64,000 nucleotides of DNA from Burkholderiales bacterium (lineage in GTDB: Bacteria; Pseudomonadota; Gammaproteobacteria; Burkholderiales; SG8-39), in assembly GCA_038903735.1 (NCBI GenBank), contig JBCKLP010000001.1:1767-65766 (forward strand), in the 5' to 3' direction. Positions 3,159 to 62,873 of the stretch are shown here, piece after piece (positions within the stretch are counted from its first letter, which is position 1; each line of letters begins with the position of its first letter). The notes beneath the pieces were generated by a model that saw only the letters and a list, made by a program, of their open reading frames with translations, searched no databases and was not told the DNA's origin. The translations under genes were made by a program, and so were the position numbers.

Positions 3159-3222
3159 TTGTCTACCTCCCTAATATCCTGGTTTTCCGCTGCATGGTTG
3201 CTCGCATGGCGTTCGTTGCGGT

Positions 3223-3312
3223 TTCATCTAAAACTAACTCCGGTTTGAAACCCCGCCCTTTAGGGCGGTGGGAGCCGACCCCGGCCTGAAGGCCTGTCGC
3301 TAATTTCTTGCT
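3223..3312 (-). mobile_element. Family-1 structured repeat, internally deleted copy (MITE/REP-like)
   Basis: Matches both ends of the 163-167-bp copies at 29699-29865 and 33847-34009. The interior between the two internal GGCCTGAAGG repeats is missing. Confidence 0.8.
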
Positions 3313-3478
3313 CGTCAGTGTAGCCGTATCCAACCTTACACCGTATTGCTCGAATGCGGCATGATGCGATACTCGTTCAGCACATCGGCCTGCACCCGGG
3401 CGCGGATCGCGCAGCCGCGGATGACCAATTCCGCCGCCGCCAGATCGATCGGCATCTCGCCGCTGAGGGCGCTCTCGA

Positions 3479-3920
3479 CTTCGGTTCGACGAAGGCGTTG
3501 AGCACCGTGGTTGAGGTGCGTTCGAATTCGCGTGCCACCTCCGACGAGGTGCAGAGGTACACGCTGGGCAGCAGAGAGGTCTGCCGTTCGCGTGCCTTTT
3601 CTTCGTGTGCGGCGTTGGCGTAGGCGTGCAGAAAGCAGATTGCGAGCGCTTCCAGCCCTTGCTCGCGAACGGTTTGCGCAATCTGTTCAAGGCCTGTTTC
3701 ATCCAGCGGCGTGAGCACTGCGCCGTCCGGGGAAATGCGCTCGGTGACTTCAAAGCGCAGATGGCGCGGCACGAAGGGCTCGGACTTCAGGTAGAAAAGG
3801 TCGTAGTTGGCCGGCCGGTTGCCACGGCCGATTTCCAGCACATCACGAAACCCGCGCGTGGTCAGAATGCCGGTTTTAGCGGCCTTTTCCAGGGCGGGGT
3901 GCCGATTGAAAACCGGGATG
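3479..3920 (-). pseudogene. hydantoinase/oxoprolinase (HyuA-like) gene fragment
   Basis: Translation KTGILTTRGFRDVLEIGRGNR...LAICFLHAYANAAHEE...TSSEVAREFERTSTTVLNAFVEPK resembles the middle of the HyuA N-terminal domain. There is no N-terminus, and the frame is lost after VEPK. Confidence 0.6.
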
Positions 3921-4012
3921 GCAATGGATCGTGGTGATCGGGCCTGACAAGCGTTGTTGCGCGCGCAGCTTGCCGCGTAAGACGCTATAGGGGGCCATCG
4001 GCCACCCGGAAT

Positions 4013-4045
4013 AAAAAAAGGCAGGGCCGTCTGGCCCTGCCTTTT
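4013..4045. terminator. bidirectional rho-independent terminator
   Basis: AAAAAAA-GGCAGGGCC-GTCT-GGCCCTGCC-TTTT. On the minus strand the stem is followed by T7, downstream of the lipoprotein gene. Confidence 0.7.
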
Positions 4046-4073
4046 CCGCTTGGGGTACTGAATGAAAAGCCGC

Positions 4074-4124
4074 TTTAATCTCTCCGGGTTGAATTCCCCG
4101 CCCCTTGGGGCGGGGAAATTTATT
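4074..4124. repeat. Family-2 palindromic element, copy 1 (51 nt)
   Basis: TTTAATCTCTCCGGGTTGAATTCCCCGCCCCTTGGGGCGGGGAAATTTATT is near-identical to 61405-61455. The core hairpin is CCCCGCCCC-TTG-GGGCGGGG. Confidence 0.8.
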
Positions 4125-4587
4125 TGCTCGCTGCGGGCTTTGGCTTCGCCGCTTCGGGTTTCGCCGCTTCGGGCTTCACTGCTACAGGCTTTGGTTTGGG
4201 GAGAAATACAATGGGGGCAACGCCCAGCGGTTTGTAATCCTTGTCGGCAACGGTGAGCATCGCCGTGCCGGGGCTGATTACACTCACATACGCAGTAAAG
4301 ACCCATTCCGCGGCCCATACGCCGTCCGCGTTCGGAACCGGCGCCGGCGTAACGGCCCCGCTGAGGCCGCTCATTCCTCCAGCAGAATCCTTGAGCAACA
4401 GTACGAGTTCCTGCTTTGGCGCAAAGCCGGTTCCGTACATTACAACCTTGCCGCCCGGGGCGAGCGTTACCACAGGGGTGGTTACCACAAACGATGGTCC
4501 CTGCCTCATGACGTCCTGGCTAGCGCAACCCATTAGAAAAAGCCCTGCACACGAAACAACTGTCAGTAACCGAAATCCCTGCTTCAT
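4120..4587 (-). CDS. putative lipoprotein with C-terminal Pro/Ala/Lys-rich repeat
   Basis: 155-aa ORF with signal peptide and lipobox (LFLMGC). The C-terminus is KPKPVAVKPEAAKPEAAKPKPAASK. GAGGAG SD lies upstream of the ATG. Confidence 0.6.
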   Translation of the reverse strand: MKQGFRLLTVVSCAGLFLMGCASQDVMRQGPSFVVTTPVVTLAPGGKVVMYGTGFAPKQELVLLLKDSAGGMSGLSGAVTPAPVPNADGVWAAEWVFTAYVSVISPGTAMLTVADKDYKPLGVAPIVFLPKPKPVAVKPEAAKPEAAKPKPAASK

Positions 4588-6334: not shown

Positions 6335-6390
6335 TCGGATAAACGCCGAGCAATTCGATTCGGAAGAACGCTTGATTCGGCTTATTATTA

Positions 6391-6705
6391 CTGAAGGGAG
6401 GACTGAACAAGGGGCCTGCGCCCCTTGTATATCCCCAATATTAGTGGGAAAAGTCTGGCATCTCGTTGGAAAATGGGATTTAAGCAGTATTTCCTGAAGG
6501 GAGGACTGAACAAGGGGCCTTCGCCCCTTGTATATCCCCAATATTAGTGGGAAAAGTCTGGCATCTCGTTGGAAAATGGGATTTAAGCAGTATTTCCTGA
6601 AGGGAGGACTGAACAAGGGGCCTTCGCCCCTTGTATATCCCCAATATTAGTGGGAAAAGTCTGGCGTCTCGTTGGAAAATGGAATTTAAGCAGTATTTCC
6701 TGAAG
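6391..6705. repeat. tandem repeat, 103-bp unit x3 plus 6 nt
   Basis: Units start at 6391, 6494, 6597 and (partial) 6700, with only a few substitutions. Each holds the hairpin ACAAGGGGC-CTKC-GCCCCTTGT. 103 is not a multiple of 3. Confidence 0.95.
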
Positions 6706-9844: not shown

Positions 9845-10085
9845 CCTTCTCCCAGTGGGAGAAGGGCTTTGCATCCCTCTCCCGTTGGCGACCGGAGGGA
9901 GAAGGGCTTTGCATTTCTCTCCCGGAGGGAAACAGGCTTTTCATCCCTCTCCTGTCGGCGACCGGAGGGAGAAGGGCTTTGCATTCCTCTCCCGCCGGCG
10001 ACCGGAGGGAGAAGGGCTTTTCATCCCTCTCCCGGCGGCGACCGGAGGAAGTCCCAGTGGGAGAGAGGGACCGAGGGTGAGGGGA
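9845..10085. repeat. array of ~6 REP-like imperfect palindromes (~40-bp units)
   Basis: Repeated TCCCTCTCCC-N-GCGACCGGAGGGAGAAGGGCTTTGCA units, each self-complementary, between convergent genes. Confidence 0.85.
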
Positions 10086-21161: not shown

Positions 21162-22071
21162 CGACCGCCTCGTCATCGCATCCCGCGAAAGCCGGCTCGC
21201 CATGTGGCAGGCACGGCATGTGCAGGACGCCTTGCGGCAATTATATCCGGCGTGCGCGATCGAGATTCTGGGCATGAGCACCCAGGGCGACCGGATACTG
21301 GATGTCACCCTGGCGAAAATTGGCGGCAAGGGCCTGTTCGTCAAGGAACTGGAATCGGCGATCCTCGATGGTCGGGCGGATTTCGCTGTGCATTCGGCCA
21401 AGGATGTGCCCATGGTGCTGCCGCCGGGCTTCTGTCTCGCGGCCATGCTGCCACGTGAGGATCCGCGTGATTGCCTGGTATCAGGACGCTTTGCCAGCCT
21501 TGAGGATCTCCCCCGCGGGGCGCGCGTGGGCAGCTCCAGCCTGCGGCGCGAGGCACAGTTGCGCGAACGCTTTTCCCACCTGCAGGTGGTGCCGGTGCGC
21601 GGCAATCTGGATACGCGCCTGGCAAAGCTCGACCGCGGCGAGTACGACGCCCTGGTGCTGGCTGTCGCGGGAATGAAACGCCTCGGGCTGGAGGAGCGCA
21701 TTCGCACTTACATTGCGCCCGAGCACAGCCTTCCCGCGCCAGGCCAGGGTGCGCTCGCAATCGAATGCCGCGACGATGCGCCCGACCTGATCGCCCTGCT
21801 TGCCGCGCTGAACGATGCCAAAACGGATGCCTGCGTGCGCGCCGAGCGCGCTCTGAGCCGCGCTCTCTCGGGTAGCTGCCAGCTCCCGCTGGGCGCCTAC
21901 GCGACTATTGAGGCTGGCGTGTTGCTGCTGCGAGGTCTGGTGGCCACGCCCGACGGCGGCACCGTGTTGCGTGCCGAGATCAGCGGTGCGCCTGGCGAGG
22001 CCGAGAACTTGGGGCAGGCCCTGGGTGCCACCTTGCGCGCCAAGGGTGCGGACCGCATTCTTGCTGGCTAG
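21154..22071 (+). CDS. hemC: hydroxymethylbilane synthase (porphobilinogen deaminase)
   Basis: [18 protein letters not shown] near the N-terminus. The TTG at 21154 is the nearest plausible start. The ATG at 21004 would overlap the opposite-strand gene by ~160 nt. Confidence 0.85.
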
Positions 22072-28137: not shown

Positions 28138-29703
28138 TCAGTGGCGGAAGTGGCGCACGCCGGTAAACACCATGGCGATGCCCAGTTCGTCGGCCGCGGC
28201 GATGACTTCATTGTCACGCAGGCTGCCGCCGGGTTGAATGATCGCCCTTGCGCCTGCCTGGGCTACCACATCGACACCGTCGCGAAACGGGAAAAATGCA
28301 TCCGAGGCCACGACCGATTTTTCCAGAGACAGCCCGGCATTCTGCGCCTTGATGGCGGCCATGCGCGCACTGTCCACGCGGCTCATCTGGCCGGCGCCCA
28401 CGCCCAGTGTGCGACCTCCGCCGCAAAACACGATGGCATTGGATTTGACGAATTTGGCAACCCGCCAGGCAAACAACAGGTCCGCCATCTGCGCGGCGTC
28501 GGGCGCGAGGCGTGTGACTACACGCAGGTCAGAGGCCGCCAGATTGCGATTGTCGGGTGTTTGCACCAGGAGCCCCCCGCCAACGCGCTTGAGATCGCGC
28601 TCAGCCGAGGCGTCGCCGGCGGCAATTTCGAGCAGACGGACATTGGCCTTGGCCGCCATGATCTCGCGTGCGGCCGGGGAAATTTCCGGCGCGATCGCCA
28701 CTTCGACGAAAAGCCTGGCGAGCGCTTGTGCGGTGTCGGCATCCAGCGGGCGGTTGAAGGCAACGATACCGCCGAATGCCGAGGTCGGATCGCAGGCAAG
28801 CGCCGCCTGATAGGCTTGCAGCGCCGTGCCGCCCACGGCAACGCCGCAGGGGTTGGCATGCTTGACAATGACACAGGCCGGCGTGTCGAAGGTTTTCACG
28901 CATTCCCAGCCAGCATCGGCGTCGGCAATATTGTTGTAGGACAACTCCTTGCCCTGAATCTGCCGATAGTTGGCCAGTGCGCCGGCAAAGGGCTGCGGAT
29001 CCCGATAAAACGCCGCGCTTTGATGGGGGTTCTCCCCGTAGCGCAGGTCCTGCACTTTCGAGAATTGCAGCGTCAGTCGCTCCGGCCATGGCTGACGTTT
29101 TCCGTCCGCATCCACGCTGCTCAGGTAATTGCTGATCGCCGCGTCGTAGGCGGCGGTATGGGTAAATACCTTTTTTGCCAGCTCAAAGCGGCGCGCGGCG
29201 CCGAGCGCGCATTCATTAGCCTGCAGTTCGGCGAGCAGGCTGGCGTAATCATGCGGATCGACAAGCACGGCAACACCCTGATGATTCTTGGCCGCTGCCC
29301 GCAACATGCTCGGCCCGCCAATATCGATATTCTCGATGGCCTCATCGAGGGAGCAGTCGGCACGCGCCACGGTTTTCTCGAAGGGGTAGAGATTCACCAC
29401 CACCAGGTCTATGGGCTCGATGTCGGCTTCGCGTATGGCACGCATGTGCTCGGGCAGGTCGCGCCTGGCAAGCAAGCCGCCATGGATGCGCGGATGCAGG
29501 GTCTTTACCCGGCCGTCCAGCATTTCCGGAAAACCTGTGTAATCGGACACTTCAGTGACGATAATGCCGGACTGTGTGAGTGCCTTCGCGGTGCCGCCCG
29601 TGGAAACAATGGCGACCCCAAGTCCGCTCAGCACGCGGGCAAACTCCACCACGCCGGTTTTATCGGATACGCTGATGAGCGCCCGGCGAATGGTGATGTT
29701 CAT
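28138..29703 (-). CDS. purH: bifunctional AICAR transformylase / IMP cyclohydrolase
   Basis: 521 aa with [11 protein letters not shown] and a C-terminus ending FTGVRHFRH. The start codon lies inside the Family-1 repeat. Confidence 0.95.
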
Positions 29704-29865
29704 CTAAAACTAACTCCGGTTTGAAACCCCGCCCTTTAGGGCGGTGGGAGCCGACCCCGGCCTGAAGGCCGGGGTTTCGGGGGCGGGCGTTTTGGGAGGG
29801 GATGCAAACCCCTTCCAAAACATGTTAGAGCGACAGGCCTGAAGGCTTGTCGCTAATTTCTTGCT
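29699..29865 (-). mobile_element. Family-1 structured repeat, full copy (MITE/REP-like, 167 bp)
   Basis: Near-identical to 33847-34009. It has four or more hairpins and no ORF. It is flanked by GATG(T) direct repeats. Its gene-proximal end is GGAGTTAGTTTTAGATGAA. Confidence 0.85.
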
Positions 29866-29924
29866 GATGTCAGGTGGAACCTTGTTGGCGCGTTCTTGCA
29901 TGCTTGGCACCGCGGGGGAGTGCG

Positions 29925-32546: not shown

Positions 32547-33851
32547 TCAGGCCGAGCCTACCAGCGCCTCGATTTCCGCGATGCTTTTCGGCGTGGCTGC
32601 GCTCAGAACCTCGTTGCCGGTTTCCGTAACCAGCACATCGTCCTCGATACGCACGCCGATATTCCAGAATTCACGCGGAATGGATTCGTGCGGGCGTATG
32701 TAGCAGCCCGGTTCGACGGTCAGCATCATGCCGGGGCGCAATGGCCGCCATTCGCCGGCGGTTTTGTACTCGCCCGCATCATGCACATCCAGCCCCAGCC
32801 AGTGGCCGGTACGGTGCATGTAAAAGCGCTTGTAGTCCTCTTTCTCCAGAACCTCAGCCAGGCTTCCCTTGCAAAGACCCAGATCGATGAATCCCTGCGC
32901 CAGCGTTTGCACGGCCGCCTCGTGCGCTTCGTTCCAGTGCCTGCCGGGCGCGACCTTGGCAATGGCGGCTGCCTGTGCGGCCAGCACCAGCCCATAAATT
33001 TCCCGCTGTCGCGCCGTGAATTTTCCGCCGATCGGCCAGGTCCGGGTGATGTCCGAGGCATATCCGTCAAGCTCGCACCCGGCATCGACCAGCAACAGTT
33101 CGTTCTCTCGCAGTGCGGCGTTATTGTCGCGATAATGCAGTATGCAGGCATTGGCGCCGCCGGCGACGATGGGCCAGTAAGCGGGGTATTGCGCGCCAAG
33201 GCGTCGAAACTGGTACAGCAGCTCGGCCTCGATCTCGTGCTCGTGCATGCCGGGGCGGGTGGCGCGCATGGCACTGCGATGGCCAGCGTCCGAAATCAGC
33301 GCAGCCCTGCGCATGGTGGCAATCTCGGTCGCGTCTTTGATCAGCCGCATCTCGTCCAGCGGGCCGCGCAGGTCGTGAATCTCAGCCGGCGCAGTGACAC
33401 CGGTGCGCGCTTGCGCGCGCACCTGATTCAGCCAGGACATGATGCGCGCGTCCCAGGCGGGATCGGCGCCGGGCATGTAATGCAGGCAGGGCTGGTCGGC
33501 GAGCAGTTTAGGAAGCATCTCATCGAGCTGCGAAATCGGGTGCGCCTCGTCAAAGCCAAAGCGCTCGCGGGCCGCCTCGGGGCCGAAACGAAAGCCCTCC
33601 CAAAGTTCCCGCTCGACATTCTTGTCGCGGCAGAACAGCAGCGACTTCGGCTCGCTTCCGGCAACCAGCACCAGAACCGCTTCCGGTTCCGGAAACGCCG
33701 TCAGGTAATAGAAATAGCTGTCATAGCGATAGAGGTAATCGCTGTCGCGATTGCGAAGTCGCTCGGGTGAGGTGGGAAGGATGGCCACACCACCCTGCAT
33801 GCTGCTGCAGAGTGCTGCACGGCGTCGTGCCTGTTCGATAGCTGTGTTCAT
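32547..33851 (-). CDS. pepP: Xaa-Pro aminopeptidase
   Basis: 434 aa with metal ligand motifs DAGCELDGYASDITRT and HRTGHWLGLDVHD. The start codon lies inside the Family-1 repeat. Confidence 0.92.
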   Translation of the reverse strand: MNTAIEQARRRAALCSSMQGGVAILPTSPERLRNRDSDYLYRYDSYFYYLTAFPEPEAVLVLVAGSEPKSLLFCRDKNVERELWEGFRFGPEAARERFGFDEAHPISQLDEMLPKLLADQPCLHYMPGADPAWDARIMSWLNQVRAQARTGVTAPAEIHDLRGPLDEMRLIKDATEIATMRRAALISDAGHRSAMRATRPGMHEHEIEAELLYQFRRLGAQYPAYWPIVAGGANACILHYRDNNAALRENELLLVDAGCELDGYASDITRTWPIGGKFTARQREIYGLVLAAQAAAIAKVAPGRHWNEAHEAAVQTLAQGFIDLGLCKGSLAEVLEKEDYKRFYMHRTGHWLGLDVHDAGEYKTAGEWRPLRPGMMLTVEPGCYIRPHESIPREFWNIGVRIEDDVLVTETGNEVLSAATPKSIAEIEALVGSA

Positions 33852-34009
33852 CTAAAACCAACTCCGGTTTGAAACCCCGCCCTTTAGGGCGGTGGGAGCC
33901 GACCCCGGCCTGAAGGCCGGGGTTTCGGGGGCGAGCGTTTTGGGAGGGGATGCAAACCCCTTCCAAAACATGTTGGACAGGCCTGAAGGCTTGTCGCTAA
34001 TTTCTTGCT
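33847..34009 (-). mobile_element. Family-1 structured repeat, full copy (163 bp)
   Basis: Near-identical to 29699-29865. It is flanked by a perfect 6-bp direct repeat GCTGTG (33841-33846 and 34010-34015). Confidence 0.85.
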
Positions 34010-34051
34010 GCTGTGAAGTATAGGGTCAAGCCGTGACGCATGGATTGCCCA

Positions 34052-53444: not shown

Positions 53445-53500
53445 AGCGCTGGGACCCTTGTGACGTTAGTGCCTACTTACGCATAGGACCAAGAGAATCG

Positions 53501-53547
53501 TGGTGGCGAATGTAGGATTCGAACCTACGACCTGCGGATTATGATTC
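53501..53547 (-). repeat. 47-nt copy of a tRNA(CAT) 3' half (att-like direct repeat / tRNA fragment)
   Basis: Matches tRNA 55133-55209 from the anticodon loop to CCA. The exception is a T-stem carrying compensatory changes (GTAGG/CCTAC versus CACAG/CTGTG). The 5' half is absent. Confidence 0.85.
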
Positions 53548-53599
53548 GGGCGAGTGGAGAAATTCAGCACAAGCTGCAATATACAACAACAATCGAATC

Positions 53600-53692
53600 A
53601 TCGGCTTGTTATCGGCTTGTCATCGGCTTGTCTATTCCTGGTTGTTCCTGCTTTTTCCTGCTTTGTGTGCCTCAGTGTGCCGCCAGTGTGCC
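53600..53692. repeat. three consecutive triplets of short direct repeats with ~10-11-bp phasing
   Basis: ATCGGCTTGTY x3 (53600-53632), TTCCTG x3 at 10-bp spacing (53635-53660), and GTGTGCC x3 at 10/11-bp spacing (53665-53692). Confidence 0.85.
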
Positions 53693-53845
53693 ACGGCGAA
53701 GCGGATTGAATAGGCGTTCAGTCGATAATGCCGTCCACGGTTCGCCAGGATCGCGCCCAGGCGCGCACGCCGGCTGGCCCGGTAAGTCACGCATATCCCA
53801 AACAAGTTATCCGGTAAACAATCTGTGGCCTGTTTAACGCTTCAG

Positions 53846-54835
53846 TCAGACTGGCGCGCCCGAGGCGCGTATTACCGGCGCCCAGCGCTTCAACTCGGCT
53901 GCGACGAAAGCGGTAAATGCCTTCGGATCGAGATTGCCCAGTTCGATACCTTCGGGCCGCAGCCGCTGAAGTACTTCGGGAAGCCGAAGAATCCGGCGTA
54001 CTTCGGTGTTCAGGCGCTGCACGATGTCCTGCGGCATTCCAGCCGGACCTGACAGGGAGATCCAGAGCGTGGCCGTCAGTTCCGGATGACCGAGTTCGGC
54101 GAACGTCGGGACATCGGGAAAGTCGGGCACGCGCGAGGTCGAGGCTACTGCGAGCGCTCGCGCTTTTCCGCTCTTTATTTGCTCGGACACTACCGTCATC
54201 GACGTCGAGATGGCAGGGATGTGTCCGGCAATAAAATCGTTGACCGCCAAAGCCGCTCCCTTGTAGGGCACATGCAGCATGTCGATTCCGATCAGTTGCT
54301 TGAAATTCTCGCCGAACAGATGGCCTAGCGAGCCAACGCCCGCGGAGCCGTAGCTCAGCTTGCCCGGCTGGGACTTGGCGTACGCGATGAATTCTTTAAG
54401 GTCGCGCGCGGGGACGCTTGGGTGTACCGTCAGCGCGTTAGGCGGTCCGCCGAAAAGTGCAATATGCGTGAAGTCGCGCATAGGATCGTACGGGGCTTTC
54501 TTCGACATCGTTGGTGCGGTTACGAGCGAAGCGACCCCGGATACGAGCAGCATGTAGCCGTCGGGTGGCGCCTTCGCTACCCTATCGGAACCGATCAGGT
54601 TACCTGCGCCCGGGACGTTTTCAACGACGAAAGCCTGCTTCATGCTCTCGGTAAGCTTCTGCGCAACAATCCGTCCCAGTATATCCGTGGTGCCGCCCGG
54701 AGCGGACGGTACGACGATGCGTACCGGTTTTGCAGGCCAAGCTTGCGCGGCTGCTGTCCCACAAGACAGTGATAATGCAATCAGCAAAGCGCGCAGACCA
54801 AGGCCGGTGAGCGATGATTTCATATTCATATTCAT
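53846..54835 (-). CDS. Bug/TctC family substrate-binding protein
   Basis: Starts MNMNMKSSLTGLG with AGGAG SD. Has a signal peptide followed by WPAKPVRIVVPSAPGGTTDILGRIV. Confidence 0.85.
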   Translation of the reverse strand: MNMNMKSSLTGLGLRALLIALSLSCGTAAAQAWPAKPVRIVVPSAPGGTTDILGRIVAQKLTESMKQAFVVENVPGAGNLIGSDRVAKAPPDGYMLLVSGVASLVTAPTMSKKAPYDPMRDFTHIALFGGPPNALTVHPSVPARDLKEFIAYAKSQPGKLSYGSAGVGSLGHLFGENFKQLIGIDMLHVPYKGAALAVNDFIAGHIPAISTSMTVVSEQIKSGKARALAVASTSRVPDFPDVPTFAELGHPELTATLWISLSGPAGMPQDIVQRLNTEVRRILRLPEVLQRLRPEGIELGNLDPKAFTAFVAAELKRWAPVIRASGAPV

Positions 54836-55064
54836 GAGAAATCTCCTAAGCAGATCAGAATAAATAGCAACAACGGTAATCTTATGGTTATTTTTAAAGT
54901 TCCGTTTAAACACAGTAGGTTGTTTTTACATCGTGACGATATGGCACACAATTGGCACAGTAGCGGCCCCGAAGGTGTGCTTATCCACAGGCTAGGGTGG
55001 TTGCGGTATTCTTGACAGTAGTCGGGGCTGGTGCGGTGTGGCGTCTTGGCAATTGCGCTGGGTA

Positions 55065-55086
55065 AGTGTGCCAAGAGTGTGCCAAG
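55065..55086. repeat. AGTGTGCCAAG x2 tandem (same GTGTGCC core as 53665-53692)
   Basis: A perfect 11-bp duplication 46 nt from the tRNA 3' end. Inverted GGCACAC/GGCACAG copies lie at 54943-54960. Confidence 0.8.
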
Positions 55087-55132
55087 AGACACAAAAGAAA
55101 GCGGTCACTATCGTTAGAAACCGTATGAATAC

Positions 55133-55209
55133 TGGTGGCGAATCACAGATTCGAACTGTGGACCTGCGGATTATGATTCCGTCGCTCTAACCGACTGAGC
55201 TAATTCGCC
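55133..55209 (-). tRNA. tRNA with CAT anticodon (Met; Ile2/lysidine type not excluded)
   Basis: 77-nt cloverleaf folded by hand: GGCGAAT/ATTCGCC acceptor, GCTC/GAGC D stem, anticodon loop ATCATAA, CACAG-TTCGAAT-CTGTG T arm, encoded CCA. Confidence 0.85.
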
Positions 55210-58484: not shown

Positions 58485-58737
58485 CCAGTGAAATGGGCCC
58501 GGGTGATGCTGCCGCGAGGGCGCGCTGTTTTTAAAGTAATGGAAAGCAACTGATTTCATCCTGAAAACCGCAGTTACCATAGGAGGATATCGTGGAAAGC
58601 CGCGTCAGTGCTGGCTCTTCGGCCAATTGACTCATATGCGGAGCAGTTCCTTTTAGGTGATGCCGATATCATGAAAAGGTCATTCCACATCAGGCAATTC
58701 GCAAGTTCTGGTCCGTTCAACTGCGTTTTTTAGGTTC

Positions 58738-58854
58738 ATGGGTTCCGGATTCTGGATTTTCATTCTTGAGGGCGCGCTGGCGCTGGCGCTGCTGGTATTC
58801 ATAGTCTGGTGGACGCTGCCCAAGCGGCCCAAGCGGCCCAAGGATAGGCAATAG
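58738..58854 (+). CDS. possible 38-aa single-pass membrane peptide
   Basis: MGSGFWIFILEGALALALLVFIVWWTLPKRPKRPKDRQ has one hydrophobic helix and a basic tail. It is below the ORF-track cutoff, and no strong SD was seen. Confidence 0.3.
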   Translation: MGSGFWIFILEGALALALLVFIVWWTLPKRPKRPKDRQ

Positions 58855-60052: not shown

Positions 60053-60742
60053 ATGCCCATGCCTCAATACCGCATTGCGCCCAGCATACTGTCCGCCAAC
60101 TTTGCCCGCCTTGGGGAGGAAGTGAGCGCGGTGCTTGCCGCGGGGGCGGACATGATCCACTTCGACGTTATGGACAACCATTACGTTCCCAATCTCACCA
60201 TCGGGCCGCTGGTGTGCGAAGCCCTGCGGCCGGTGACCAGTGCCGTGATCGATGTGCACCTGATGGTCGAACCGGTGGACCGCATCATTCCGGATTTCGC
60301 CAAAGCCGGCGCCAACATCATCAGCTTTCATCCCGAGGCCAGCCGCCATGTTGATCGCACCATCGGGCTGATCCATGAGCAGGGTTGCAAGGCCGGGCTG
60401 GTATTGAATCCGGCCACGCCGCTGGATTGCCTGGACCACGTGCTCTCGCGCCTGGACCTGGTGCTGATCATGTCGGTCAATCCGGGCTTTGGCGGACAGA
60501 AATTCATCGACCATGCACTGGTGAAACTGGCTGAGGTGCGCAGGCGCATCGATATTGAAACCCGCAACAGCGGGCGCCAAATCCTGCTGGAGATTGACGG
60601 TGGCGTGAAGACCGACAATATCGCTGCCATTGCCCGCGCCGGTGCCGACACCTTTGTGGCCGGTTCGGCGATATTTGGCTCAGCAGACTACAAGGCGACC
60701 ATCGCCGCGATGCGTGCGGCGCTGGCCGGCCTCACCCCGTGA
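60053..60742 (+). CDS. rpe: ribulose-phosphate 3-epimerase
   Basis: [30 protein letters not shown] and [12 protein letters not shown] motifs. The start is 60053 or 60059. Confidence 0.93.
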
Positions 60743-61473
60743 GCGGCGCGGCGCAGGGCGCACCGGTTCGCGCGGTGCTGTTCGATCTTGACGGTACTTT
60801 GCTCGATACCGCAGGTGATCTGGCCTGCGCGGCAAATCGCATGCTCGCTGCCATGGGGCTGGCGCCGCGCAGCGAGTCGGAAATACGCGACTTTGTCGGC
60901 AAGGGCACGGCGAAATTGGTGGAACGCTGCCTTGCAGGCTCGAAGGTCGCGTTCGCGGATGCCATGGCCTTGTTTGATGCCGCCTATCGTGAGGAATCCG
61001 GTCGCAGCGCGCGGGTCTATCCCGGCGTTCGTGAAGGCATCGCCATGCTGGCCGAGGATGGCCTGCCCTTGGGTTGCGTCACCAACAAACCTGCGGCATT
61101 CACCCTGCCGCTGCTGCGCGACGCGGGGCTGGCCGCCCACTTTGCCGTGGTGGTCTCTGGTGACACTGTGGCGCGGCGCAAACCCGATCCCATGCCTTAT
61201 ACCCATGCCTGTGAACAATTAGCTGTTCCCTGTGCCCAGGTGCTGGTGGTCGGGGATTCCGCGAATGATGTCGAGGCAGCGCGGGCAGCGGGTTGCCGCG
61301 TGCTGTGCGTGCCCTACGGCTATCGCGAGGGCCAGTCGCTGGAGTCGCTGGCCTGTGACGCGGTGGTGGCCGATGTTCGCGCCGCTGCGCAATATGTGCG
61401 GGAGTTGAATCTGTCCGGGTTCAATTCCCCGCCCCTTGGGGCGGGGAAATTTATTGCGGAGCTTGCAGGATGA
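60739..61473 (+). CDS. gph: phosphoglycolate phosphatase (with a 19-codon repeat-derived insertion near the C-terminus)
   Basis: HAD motifs [17 protein letters not shown] and [11 protein letters not shown]. It follows rpe, as is common. The C-terminus reads through the Family-2 element. Confidence 0.88.
61405..61455. repeat. Family-2 palindromic element, copy 2 (51 nt), intragenic
   Basis: TTGAATCTGTCCGGGTTCAATTCCCCGCCCCTTGGGGCGGGGAAATTTATT is the same length as 4074-4124 with three substitutions. Confidence 0.85.
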
Positions 61474-62873
61474 CTCGTTTGCTGGAACAGATAGGCGCCG
61501 CAGTGGGGACTGCCGGTTTGTTGCAGGGCGCTGATGCGGTGGCAAGCGCCACCGACTGGCGCAAACGCTATTTCGGCAAGGCGCTGGCGGTGGTGCGACC
61601 TGAGAACACCGCTGAGGTTGCGCAAGTGGTGCGTCTGTGTGCCGAGTCAGGCACGGCAATCGTGCCACAAGGCGGAAACACGGGGCTGTGCGGTGGCGCC
61701 ACCCCGGATGCGAGTGGCGCCCAGATTGTGCTCAGCCTGTCACGCATGAACCGTGTGCGCGCCATCGACACCCTGAACAACACCCTCACCGTGGAAGCCG
61801 GTTGCGTGCTCAGCGCCGTGCAGCAAGCCGCCGAAGCCGCGGGCCGGCTGTTTCCGCTCAGCCTGGCGGCAGAAGGCACGGCGCAGATTGGCGGCAATCT
61901 CTCCACCAATGCCGGCGGTACCGCCGTGCTGAGATATGGCAATACGCGTGAACTCACGCTGGGTCTGGAGGCAGTGCTGCCCAATGGTGATATCTGGGAC
62001 GGCTTGCGGGGCTTGCGCAAGGACAATACCGGTTACGATTTAAAGCATCTGTTTATCGGCGCTGAAGGCACCTTGGGTGTCATTACCGCGGCAGTGCTCA
62101 AACTGTTTCCGCTGCCCCGCGCCCGTATCACCGCGGTTGCGGCGTTGCAGGACGCGCAGACCGCGCTCTGCCTGCTTGGCTATGCGCAGGAGCGCCTGGG
62201 CAGCCGGCTCACCGGATTCGAACTGTTCTCCGATCTGTGCCTGGGACTGGTGTTGAAGCACTATCCGGCGAGCGTCGCGCCCTTCGCCGCGCGCTATCCG
62301 CAGTATGTGCTGATCGAATTGTCGGATCTGGAATCCGAGGCTGCGGCGCGCCAGTCACTGGAGGATGTTCTGGGTGGTGCGCTGGAGGCAGGGCTCATCA
62401 TTGACGCGGCGGTGTCGCAGAGCCTGGCGCAGTTCAAGGCCATGTGGTCGCTGCGCGACAATGTCTCCGAGGCGCAGGCCCATGAAGGACCGAACATAAA
62501 GCACGACGTCAGCGTGCCGATTTCGCGCATGGCCGAATTCATCACGGTGACCGATGCCGAGTTGGCAAGGGCGTTCCCGGGAATGCGCAATGTCACCTTC
62601 GGCCACCTGGGAGACGGCAACCTGCATTACAACATCTCGCCGCCCGAGGGCGTTCCCCATGCCGATTTCGTGCGCCGTACCGAAGAGGTCAATCGCGTGG
62701 TGCACGACAGCGTGGCGCGCTTCAATGGCTCGATTTCGGCCGAGCACGGCCTTGGCCAGTACAAGCGCGAGGAGATCACCCGCTACAAGTCTCCTGTGGA
62801 GATGGAGATGATGCGCAGCATCAAGCGGGCGCTGGACCCGCAGGGAATCATGAATCCGGGCAAGGTGCTCTAG
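61470..62873 (+). CDS. FAD-linked oxidase (GlcD / D-2-hydroxyacid dehydrogenase family)
   Basis: 467 aa with the FAD-binding PCMH motif IVPQGGNTGLCGG and a C-terminal EHGLG. The ATG overlaps the gph stop. Confidence 0.85.
   Translation: MTRLLEQIGAAVGTAGLLQGADAVASATDWRKRYFGKALAVVRPENTAEVAQVVRLCAESGTAIVPQGGNTGLCGGATPDASGAQIVLSLSRMNRVRAIDTLNNTLTVEAGCVLSAVQQAAEAAGRLFPLSLAAEGTAQIGGNLSTNAGGTAVLRYGNTRELTLGLEAVLPNGDIWDGLRGLRKDNTGYDLKHLFIGAEGTLGVITAAVLKLFPLPRARITAVAALQDAQTALCLLGYAQERLGSRLTGFELFSDLCLGLVLKHYPASVAPFAARYPQYVLIELSDLESEAAARQSLEDVLGGALEAGLIIDAAVSQSLAQFKAMWSLRDNVSEAQAHEGPNIKHDVSVPISRMAEFITVTDAELARAFPGMRNVTFGHLGDGNLHYNISPPEGVPHADFVRRTEEVNRVVHDSVARFNGSISAEHGLGQYKREEITRYKSPVEMEMMRSIKRALDPQGIMNPGKVL

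Follow-up and report, generated by a model that had tools for sequence, protein, structure and literature searches.

How can a hairpin-forming repeat lie inside the coding sequence of a housekeeping enzyme and leave both the reading frame and the overlap with the next gene in place? The question is raised by gph, the predicted phosphoglycolate phosphatase gene near 61 kb of a 64-kb window of a Burkholderiales bacterium (the window being the whole stretch of 64,000 nucleotides (nt) analysed here). An initial annotation of the window had proposed that a dispersed, hairpin-forming repeat stands in frame near the 3′ end of gph, which is borne out: the open reading frame (ORF) reads through the repeat, and a second copy lies at 4074-4124. 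Here we report that the gph segment is an insertion relative to orthologues, and that the inserted unit is 45 nt long. Judging from its likeness to known transposon ends, the repeat is very probably a non-autonomous, terminal-only, transposase-less 45-nt derivative of an IS200-group insertion sequence (IS) of the IS200/IS605 type.

An in-frame insertion near the 3′ end of gph

The window Gph and 24 orthologues, each at most 74% identical to it, were aligned at the protein level with MAFFT. None of the 24 orthologues contains the segment, confirming the extra unit that the initial annotation had suggested looking for in such an alignment. The closest orthologues end in ...YVRRVN-RAFSEVAG, and the tail that follows Y/F-V comprises 12 residues in 14 of the 15 closest orthologues, as against 24 in the window Gph. 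Among the 120 homologues listed, the peptide occurs only in the window's own record and in a sister strain, which was found among the members of the 90% cluster of the window Gph; the same residues are thus not seen in the orthologues that lack the repeat. The sister assembly (GCA_038903675.1, locus L028) has 94-97% nucleotide identity to the window, carries the identical 51 nt (a hexamer plus the unit, see below) and encodes a Gph that is 98% identical.

The empty site in the orthologue L029 reads ...CGG CGC GTG AAT CGC GCA TTT TCG GAG GTC GCG GGA TGA, and that in L030 is similar. The TTG AAT of the window occupies the codon register of GTG AAT in both, and the N of the encoded (V/L)-N is conserved in the 18 closest orthologues. 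Since the orthologues have GTG AAT in the same register, TTGAAT is host sequence, and the inserted DNA begins directly after it. The segment in gph is therefore an insertion relative to the orthologues, with the following features.

60739-61473, + strand: gph ORF, 244 amino acids, with the insert as codons 226-240 (ORF list, NCBIfam profiles)
61405-61410, + strand: TTGAAT, the host target hexamer abutting the left end of the element; encodes the ancestral L-N and lies outside the inserted DNA (orthologues)
61411-61455, + strand: 45-nt single-hairpin mini-element, translated as 15 residues (matches to other copies and to IS200-group ends)
61425-61448, + strand: GC-rich hairpin TTCCCCGCCCC-TT-GGGGCGGGGAA with a perfect stem of 10 pairs and a loop of CUUG type (folding)
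61447-61455, + strand: putative right-end tail AAATTTATT, 9 nt from the GGGG of the palindrome arm to the right boundary (likeness to IS right ends)
61458-61461, + strand: GGAG, Shine-Dalgarno sequence of the oxidase gene, intact 2 nt past the element (sequence)
61470-62873, + strand: gene for a GlcD-like FAD-linked oxidase; its start and the stop of gph overlap in ATGA (ORF list)

A second copy and its empty site define a 45-nt unit

The 51-nt string at 61405-61455 recurs at 4074-4124 with three mismatches, where shuffled sequences gave an expectation of 0.00 such matches. In a mismatch-tolerant search, the 20-nt palindrome CCCCGCCCCTTGGGGCGGGG occurs exactly twice, against 0.05 occurrences expected. 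The second copy meets the end of a minus-strand gene, with these features.

4074-4079, + strand: TTTAAT, the target hexamer next to the second copy; the original minus-strand stop, TAA, was contained in ATTAAA, its reverse complement (comparison with L157/L158)
4080-4124, + strand: second 45-nt mini-element, 43 of 45 positions identical to the gph copy (repeat search and empty site)
4120-4587, - strand: putative lipoprotein ORF, 155 amino acids, whose final 5 nt lie within the element

A relative with an 88%-identical lipoprotein (L157/L158) supplies the empty site, ACG AAA TAG CGCTAC TTTTCATTCAG. Removal of 4080-4124 from the window leaves AGC AAT TAA AGCGGC TTTTCATTCAG, which is colinear with L157/L158, including the position of the stop; taking out 51 nt at 4074 instead spoils both the stop and the spacing. 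The right-end tail of this copy (AATAAA) now gives the stop TAA (4122-4120) of the minus-strand ORF. Taken together, the inserted unit is 45 nt and lies directly 3′ of a TTNAAT hexamer, without target duplication. The initial annotation had described a 51-nt element within a 57-nt, 19-codon unit, and both lengths have to be corrected to 45 nt in view of the GTG AAT of the orthologues and the empty site of the second copy.

Further copies agree with these boundaries. A pattern search covering one genome per species, apart from the window's own genome, found the 45-nt unit three times in "Gammaproteobacteria bacterium SLM_MC1B_46-E17" (GTDB genome JBCKWF01: L003, L005 and L008) and a variant of it in a Polaromonas metagenome-assembled genome (L001); most of the 27 matches listed were unrelated GC hairpins. 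The flanks of these four loci are unrelated to one another. Similarity between copies starts at T(T)NAAT and stops at AAATT(T/G)ATT, and no flanking repeats were found in the six copies in which they were looked for. The tail AAATTTATT is identical in four of the five other copies and differs by 1 base in L008. At the left junction, AAT stands directly 5′ of the element in 19 of 20 related cases, and position 3 of the hexamer is T, G, A or C, as expected for a host target sequence. Other copies sit 22, 25 and ~80 nt past co-oriented ORFs. A strict 35-nt pattern had no match in metagenome contigs, and a 28-nt pattern had none in viral contigs.

Two other delimitations were considered. The MAFFT protein alignment had suggested a 36-nt insertion with ancestral flanks, which was rejected because AAATTTATT recurs in other copies. 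A target-site duplication TTTAAT/TTTATT was rejected as well, since the two ends disagree within individual copies.

The surroundings of the copies gave some separate observations. A bidirectional terminator hairpin (AAAAAAAGGCAGGGCC-GTCT-GGCCCTGCCTTTT) at 4013-4047, 27 nt from the second mini-element, is conserved in the relative L157, so the second copy landed between the stop codon and the gene's own terminator. The minus-strand ORF 3377-4318 is long and spurious-looking, and may be a gene fragment; its stretch GILTTRGFRDVLEIGRGN... (3377-3950, minus strand) seems to resemble the N-terminus of a hydantoinase/oxoprolinase. The AT-richer genome JBCKWF01, with its three near-identical copies, and the sister genome JBCKLQ01 have neighbouring accession prefixes. 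If both stem from a single study or habitat, as they may, this would be a hint that the element or its parent has spread horizontally in recent times.

The unit resembles fused ends of an IS200-group element

The mini-element consists of a leader CT(C/G)TCCGGGTT(C/G)AATT, a palindrome CCCCGCCCC-TT-GGGGCGGGG and the right-end tail AAATTTATT. The palindrome at 61425-61448 is a perfect 9-bp GC core lengthened by A-T pairs, and the element folds strongly, with -27.4 kcal/mol (z = -3.6). The termini CTGTCC... and ...TTTATT, when compared, are not inverted repeats.

A looser scan of metagenome contigs returned more than 120 matches and led from the unit to its relatives. At L088, L059, L133 and L105, TTTAAT followed by CTCTTGGGTTCAATTCCCCGCCCCTTGGGGCGG stands ~30 nt upstream of an ORF starting MSEYLHRSHNVTVLMYHLVFPAKYRR, which is 61-74% identical (tblastn) to the best-matching plasmid genes annotated as IS200/IS605 tnpA. 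The hexamer plus the first 34 nt match the same stretch of the tnpA-bearing element of L088/L059 at 38 of 40 positions. Plasmids match nt 1-39 of the 51-nt string at 85-90% identity, and such a tnpA is present in several of these records as well. In the Megaera plasmid (L151, tnpA at 21493-21936) and the Chroococcidiopsis plasmid (L152), the left end has the same place upstream of tnpA, and past tnpA the right ends read ATACCCCGNNGC..GCGGCGGGG and then 9-12 nt ending in ATT. We also found tnpA-less versions of ~100 nt, composed of left end, short linker and right end, in Trichlorobacter (L153) and Klebsiella (L154) plasmids and in metagenomes (L039, L081). The right ends of all six (L151, L152, L153, L154, L039 and L081) show GGGG and then 9-12 nt ending in (T/C)ATT, and the GGGGAAATTTATT of the window unit shares their layout.

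Three size classes were thus found, of ~700 bp, ~100 nt and ~45 nt, and one-hairpin minis also occur in metagenomes (L064, L085, L128). The left-end and right-end palindromes of the Megaera element are direct repeats (CCCCGCCGCTTGCGGCG versus CCCCGCTGCTTGCGGCGGGG). The combination of a leader, one palindrome and a right-end tail (GGGG-AAATTTATT) points to a fusion of left end and right end, the product expected from a deletion between two near-identical end palindromes. Judged by these alignments, the unit is homologous to tnpA-linked left ends and to right ends, and it shares their conserved AAT target.

These properties are those of the IS200/IS605 family, whose members move as single strands ("peel and paste") without inverted repeats or target duplications, and whose left end is in every case joined 3′ of a tetra- or pentanucleotide specific to the element (PMC5027513). 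Guide bases 5′ of each palindrome pair with the cleavage sites and so select them (PMC8266576). The TTNAATC/GGTTNAA complementarity of the unit, which appears as "hairpin 1" in RNAfold, is plausibly the cleavage-site/guide-sequence contact typical of IS200/IS605. IS200/IS605 insertion is also biased to the lagging-strand template (PMC5027513); both window copies are in + orientation, and the GC skew of the + strand is positive in 15 of 16 windows along the stretch, which is the direction expected, in a comparison based on two copies.

Other identities of the repeat were considered. "Hairpin 1" (nt 1-20) was rejected as an RNA domain of its own, since its base pairs join the left-end leader to the host target hexamer. 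An Rfam search of the element gave sub-threshold hits only (best, anti-hemB, E = 0.36). The T-arm-like GGGTTCAATTCCC had suggested a tRNA/tmRNA 3′-end remnant or attachment site, and this reading was discarded: the flanking stem is mismatched, no continuation into an acceptor/CCA is seen, and ARAGORN has no prediction at this place.

Several other repeats touch on the same family. L151 (Candidatus Megaera polyxenophila plasmid NZ_CP104168.1) matches IS200-type tnpA in 24 places, belonging to at least three subgroups with unrelated ends, and several of these copies interrupt Tn3-family transposase and integrase genes. Its abundant tnpA copies belong to a different IS200 subgroup with unrelated ends, and only the copy at 21493 is informative here. 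Among the metagenome loci L031-L150, many distinct repeat families share GGTTNNANNCCCCGCCCNTTNGGGCGG, each with its own conserved flanks (for example TTATTCGTGCTGAGGGGTTTAATACC...GGTATTAAACCCCGAATGCAATT in Ga0209755 contigs), and compensatory changes are seen between families; these are presumably the ends of other IS200/IS605-type elements. Within the window, a longer multi-hairpin repeat family has three copies (3221-3353, 29697-29875 and 33845-34019), all on the + strand. It starts with CTCCGGTTTGAAACCCCGCCCTTTAGGGCGG, a leader-plus-palindrome module shared with the IS200-type left end, and by this likeness is probably a larger palindrome-associated transposable element (PATE) or miniature inverted-repeat transposable element (MITE) of a related IS200/IS605 element. 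At least the copy at 29697 directly adjoins an apparent minus-strand ATG.

The gph operon and the tolerated tail

By profile scores, the product of 60739-61473 is a genuine phosphoglycolate phosphatase Gph (HAD-IA): it scores 242.5 bits with NF009695 (cut-off 225) and 209.5 bits with TIGR01449 (cut-off 180), and residues 15-21, FDLDGTL, contain the DxDGT motif. The two profile matches stop at residues 221 and 212, respectively, both ahead of the insert. NCBI holds an identical protein (P0001). In the AlphaFold model, the mean predicted local distance difference test (pLDDT) score is 87 overall and ~90 across residues 11-230, the final helix (213-225) is confident, and the score drops to 53 and then to 41 over residues 231-244. 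The insertion site in this model is the low-confidence C-terminal tail, past the last helix of the HAD fold.

Upstream of gph lies rpe, and downstream the GlcD-like FAD-linked oxidase gene, whose match to TIGR00387 glcD is below the cut-off. The stop codon of gph and its 4-nt ATGA overlap with the oxidase start at 61470 are both kept, as the initial annotation had read from the sequence and as the ORF list agrees. The rpe-gph-oxidase order and the ATGA overlap are also found in relatives without the insert, indicating that the coupling is ancestral and merely kept in the window. At the place of the Shine-Dalgarno sequence, L029 has GGAG and L030 has GGGG.

How the unit may have arrived and why gph tolerates it

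We propose that a Y1 (HUH) transposase supplied in trans would paste one DNA strand just 3′ of TTGAAT. The left- and right-end palindromes of the parent would be near-identical direct repeats, and a deletion between them would drop tnpA and leave a fused hairpin. Either the 45-nt unit itself was mobilized, or the insertion was of a full element whose core was deleted afterwards through its palindromes; we lean towards the former. The frame is kept since 45 nt amount to 15 whole codons, none of them a stop in this GC-rich unit; the gph copy is in fact stop-free in all three forward frames. Gph gains 15 residues in a floppy C-terminal tail, and three features 3′ of the insert are untouched: the Shine-Dalgarno sequence, the gph stop codon and the overlap ATGA. 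The extra peptide is presumably neutral, and we infer, rather than observe, any effect of the hairpin on transcription or on the downstream oxidase gene.

Several points weigh against an IS200-derived 45-nt unit that arrived in this way. Removing the 45 nt leaves ...YVRELN/AELAG and the stop, 3 codons short of the tail of the closest orthologues, so that a 9-nt extra difference must be assumed for the gph tail, and the closest empty-site orthologues are only ~74% identical. Tail length varies more among more distant orthologues; an unrelated 9-nt difference is plausible, and a 9-nt loss tied to the insertion or to the core deletion is possible. The match of the right end rests on more distant relatives, because the contigs of the closest full-length relative (L088/L059) end before its right end. 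No Y1 transposase gene was found by tblastn (E<=1e-3) in the 64-kb window or in the 8-kb loci L003, L005 and L008. Mobilization in trans is therefore a step that we can only infer. In addition, a dimeric Y1 transposase normally synapses two hairpins, and the excision and pasting of a one-hairpin unit is an assumption.

Alternative explanations

The strongest alternative, which we consider less probable than the direct arrival of the mini-element, is that a full-length IS200-type element or a ~100-nt MITE inserted 3′ of TTGAAT and was reduced in situ by recombination between its palindromes, with selection favouring the in-frame, non-polar survivor; the 45-nt unit would then be immobile. The end palindromes of the relatives, being direct repeats of each other (e.g. 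Megaera), would allow this reduction, all three size classes exist, and archaeal PATEs and ISHwa23 are known to have lost their core in just this way, shrinking from 1500 bp to 52 bp (PMC3119063). An untidy deletion could also explain the 9-nt deficit. However, five near-identical 45-nt copies are present in two genomes, and neither a full-length copy nor one of intermediate size is present in the ~90 kb of available sequence. Every copy has an exact right boundary, several other one-hairpin minis occur in metagenomes, and a 700-bp terminator-bearing element in the operon would be polar on the downstream gene.

It is improbable that the hairpin is kept for a task in the mRNA, as a terminator, attenuator or stabilizer that sets the ratio of the gph and oxidase products, with the peptide as a by-product. 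The hairpin at 61425-61448 looks like an intrinsic (Rho-independent) terminator: a pattern scan matches 10 pairs (8 GC), a 4-nt loop and the tail ATTTATTGCG, a match of sequence only and inside a translated ORF, and AUUUAUU follows the 10-bp stem. In IS200, the homologous hairpin has been proven to terminate in both directions (PMC4513863), and other copies lie downstream of genes. On the other hand, ribosomes translating the ORF would melt the stem, all other orthologues do without the hairpin under the same ATGA coupling, and any insertion spared by selection would also be expected to lie past genes. Between two genomes whose neighbouring sites differ by ~3.6%, the element shows no change, but the absence of differences is not significant because only ~1.8 are expected over 45-51 nt.

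Very little favours the model of a 51-nt palindromic element, MITE-like or resembling a Rickettsia palindromic element (RPE), with a 6-7 nt target-site duplication (GCGGGAG ... GCGGAG), in which a clean 57-nt (19-codon) excision would restore ...AAQYVRE/LAG and the stop. Both strings are indeed present, at 61398-61404 and 61456-61461, 57 is a multiple of 3, and the two window copies do share the 51-nt string. As element boundaries, however, the strings fail: the sequence left of the element is GCGGGGG in the sister genome, where the window has GCGGGAG, and no other copy has a flanking repeat. The orthologues show GTG AAT, with its N conserved in the 18 closest, where this model places element DNA; the 57-nt excision leaves a tail 7 residues shorter than that of the orthologues; and the empty site of the second copy fits 45 nt rather than 51 or more. 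The direct repeat is coincidental.

Finally, a mis-assembly, or a sequencing error hiding a true gph stop upstream (a concern raised in the initial annotation, the source probably being a metagenome-assembled contig of 69,120 nt), is practically out of the question, because the independent assembly GCA_038903675.1, ~3-5% divergent, has the identical insert and structure, and the frame past the insert rejoins the conserved E-x-A-G-stop end and the ATGA overlap of the orthologues.

Implications

In practical terms, the 15 additional residues of Gph come from a transposon, and it would be a mistake to annotate them as a functional extension. The signature TTNAAT, leader, CCCCGCCCC-TT-GGGGCGGGG and ~9 nt ending in ATT could flag the mini-element, its ~100-nt cousins and the full-length parents in other genomes and metagenomes. 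A terminator-type hairpin 14 nt ahead of a translationally coupled start is, moreover, a natural test of the shielding by translation against intrinsic termination.

A bolder proposition, which we regard as unlikely on present evidence, is that the 45-nt one-hairpin unit is an active transposable substrate, the smallest mobile IS200-type form in bacteria and a stage between IS200 ends and REP sequences. Such mobility would bear on the minimum substrate of Y1 transposases and on the origin of REPs from IS200/IS605 ends, and the unit would pass between bacteria that live together and differ widely in GC content. At 15 codons, and stop-free in most frames, such a unit could colonize coding sequence and donate peptide segments or terminator hairpins.

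Other features of the window

Comparison with the sister genome L028 revealed two further differences. A segment of ~1.6 kb (53548-55126, in 53495-55209) is absent from L028. It contains a minus-strand ORF (53846-54913) for a Bug/TctC-like periplasmic binding protein, and has tRNA-Met (55133-55209, minus strand) on one side and, on the other, 58 nt that repeat part of this tRNA (53495-53552); the region 53495-55209 looks like a small tRNA-targeted insertion. At ~58560-58850, ~290 nt have no counterpart in L028, the blastn blocks breaking at 58559 and 58851. The window also holds tandem repeat arrays at 6388-6705 and 9852-10078, one with three copies of a 103-nt period and the other with GGGAGAAGGGCTTTGCAT-type units spaced 30-40 nt.

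Comparison with known systems

The closest counterparts of the window unit are the terminal-only PATEs of IS605 type in Haloquadratum walsbyi, such as HqIRS46 and ISHwa23 in their 52-bp forms (PMC3119063). Like these, the unit has no transposase, no inverted terminal repeats and no target duplication; it retains one near-terminal palindrome, as left by a deletion between both end palindromes; its 5′ leader is longer than its 3′ side and adjoins a short, conserved left targeting oligonucleotide; and, at ~50 nt, it occurs in several copies at unrelated loci. The 52-bp PATEs were made by deletion between near-terminal palindromes and are possibly mobile, with strain-specific insertions and the same ambiguity of route (PMC3119063), so that the concept of a minimal mobile form is not new. 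PATE-like minimal elements also occur in Geobacillus (PMC10055086). Unlike PATEs, the window unit has a bacterial (betaproteobacterial) rather than an archaeal host and measures 45 nt rather than 52 bp; its parent belongs to the IS200 group, with tnpA only and perfect palindromes, and not to IS1341/tnpB; and one of its window copies is translated as protein.

Salmonella IS200 likewise has a perfect GC-rich palindrome near its left end (PMC4513863, PMC8266576), at nt 12-34 in IS200 and nt 15-38 in the unit, and in the full-length relatives of the unit the palindrome also lies upstream of a Y1 tnpA. The IS200 left-end hairpin (nt 12-34) is a bidirectional Rho-independent terminator (PMC4513863), whereas that of the unit is a predicted terminator, and the unit lacks tnpA and has 45 nt rather than 707 bp. 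The closest transposases of the unit's relatives are at most 74% identical to annotated plasmid genes, and less than 60% to Salmonella records.

The REP and REPIN sequences mobilized by RAYT (TnpA-REP) are also short single palindromes related to IS200/IS605 ends (PMC3733652, PMC8266576, PMC3337134). As with the unit, they lie mostly just past genes, sometimes giving stop codons, and sometimes within ORFs, where they are translated. Stop codons supplied by REP termini are documented, as are in-frame REP, ERIC and MITE insertions outside Rickettsia, including the betaproteobacterium Thauera (PMC3733652, PMC10969869); together with the 52-bp IS605-type derivatives (PMC3119063), these precedents do not support the impression of the initial annotation, which was aware of no equivalent for this element family. 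The unit differs from REPs in the flanks of its stem (..TTCAATT and AAATTTATT), which have no GTAG or CGTC on either strand, in the single rather than inverted-pair arrangement of its window copies, in its apparently low copy number (2 in 64 kb), and in that its homologues are the ends of a bona fide IS200-type element, not repeats flanking a RAYT gene.

The initial annotation had drawn an analogy with RPEs, which holds for the outcome, read-through as protein, and breaks down for the identity of the element, which belongs to IS200/IS605. In RPEs, as described by Ogata et al. 2000 and cited in later work (PMC10969869, PMC3733652), a palindromic selfish repeat stands in frame in a housekeeping enzyme gene and is apparently tolerated. 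In those later accounts, RPEs are ~100-150 bp, CGTC-tagged, confined to Rickettsia and often placed mid-protein (PMC10969869, PMC3733652). The window unit, by contrast, is 45 nt and IS200-derived, has no CGTC terminus, occupies an extreme C-terminal tail, and resides in a 62% GC betaproteobacterium-like genome rather than in Rickettsia. Collectively, the unit is a bacterial, IS200-group counterpart of the terminal-only PATEs, and is neither a strict REP nor an RPE.

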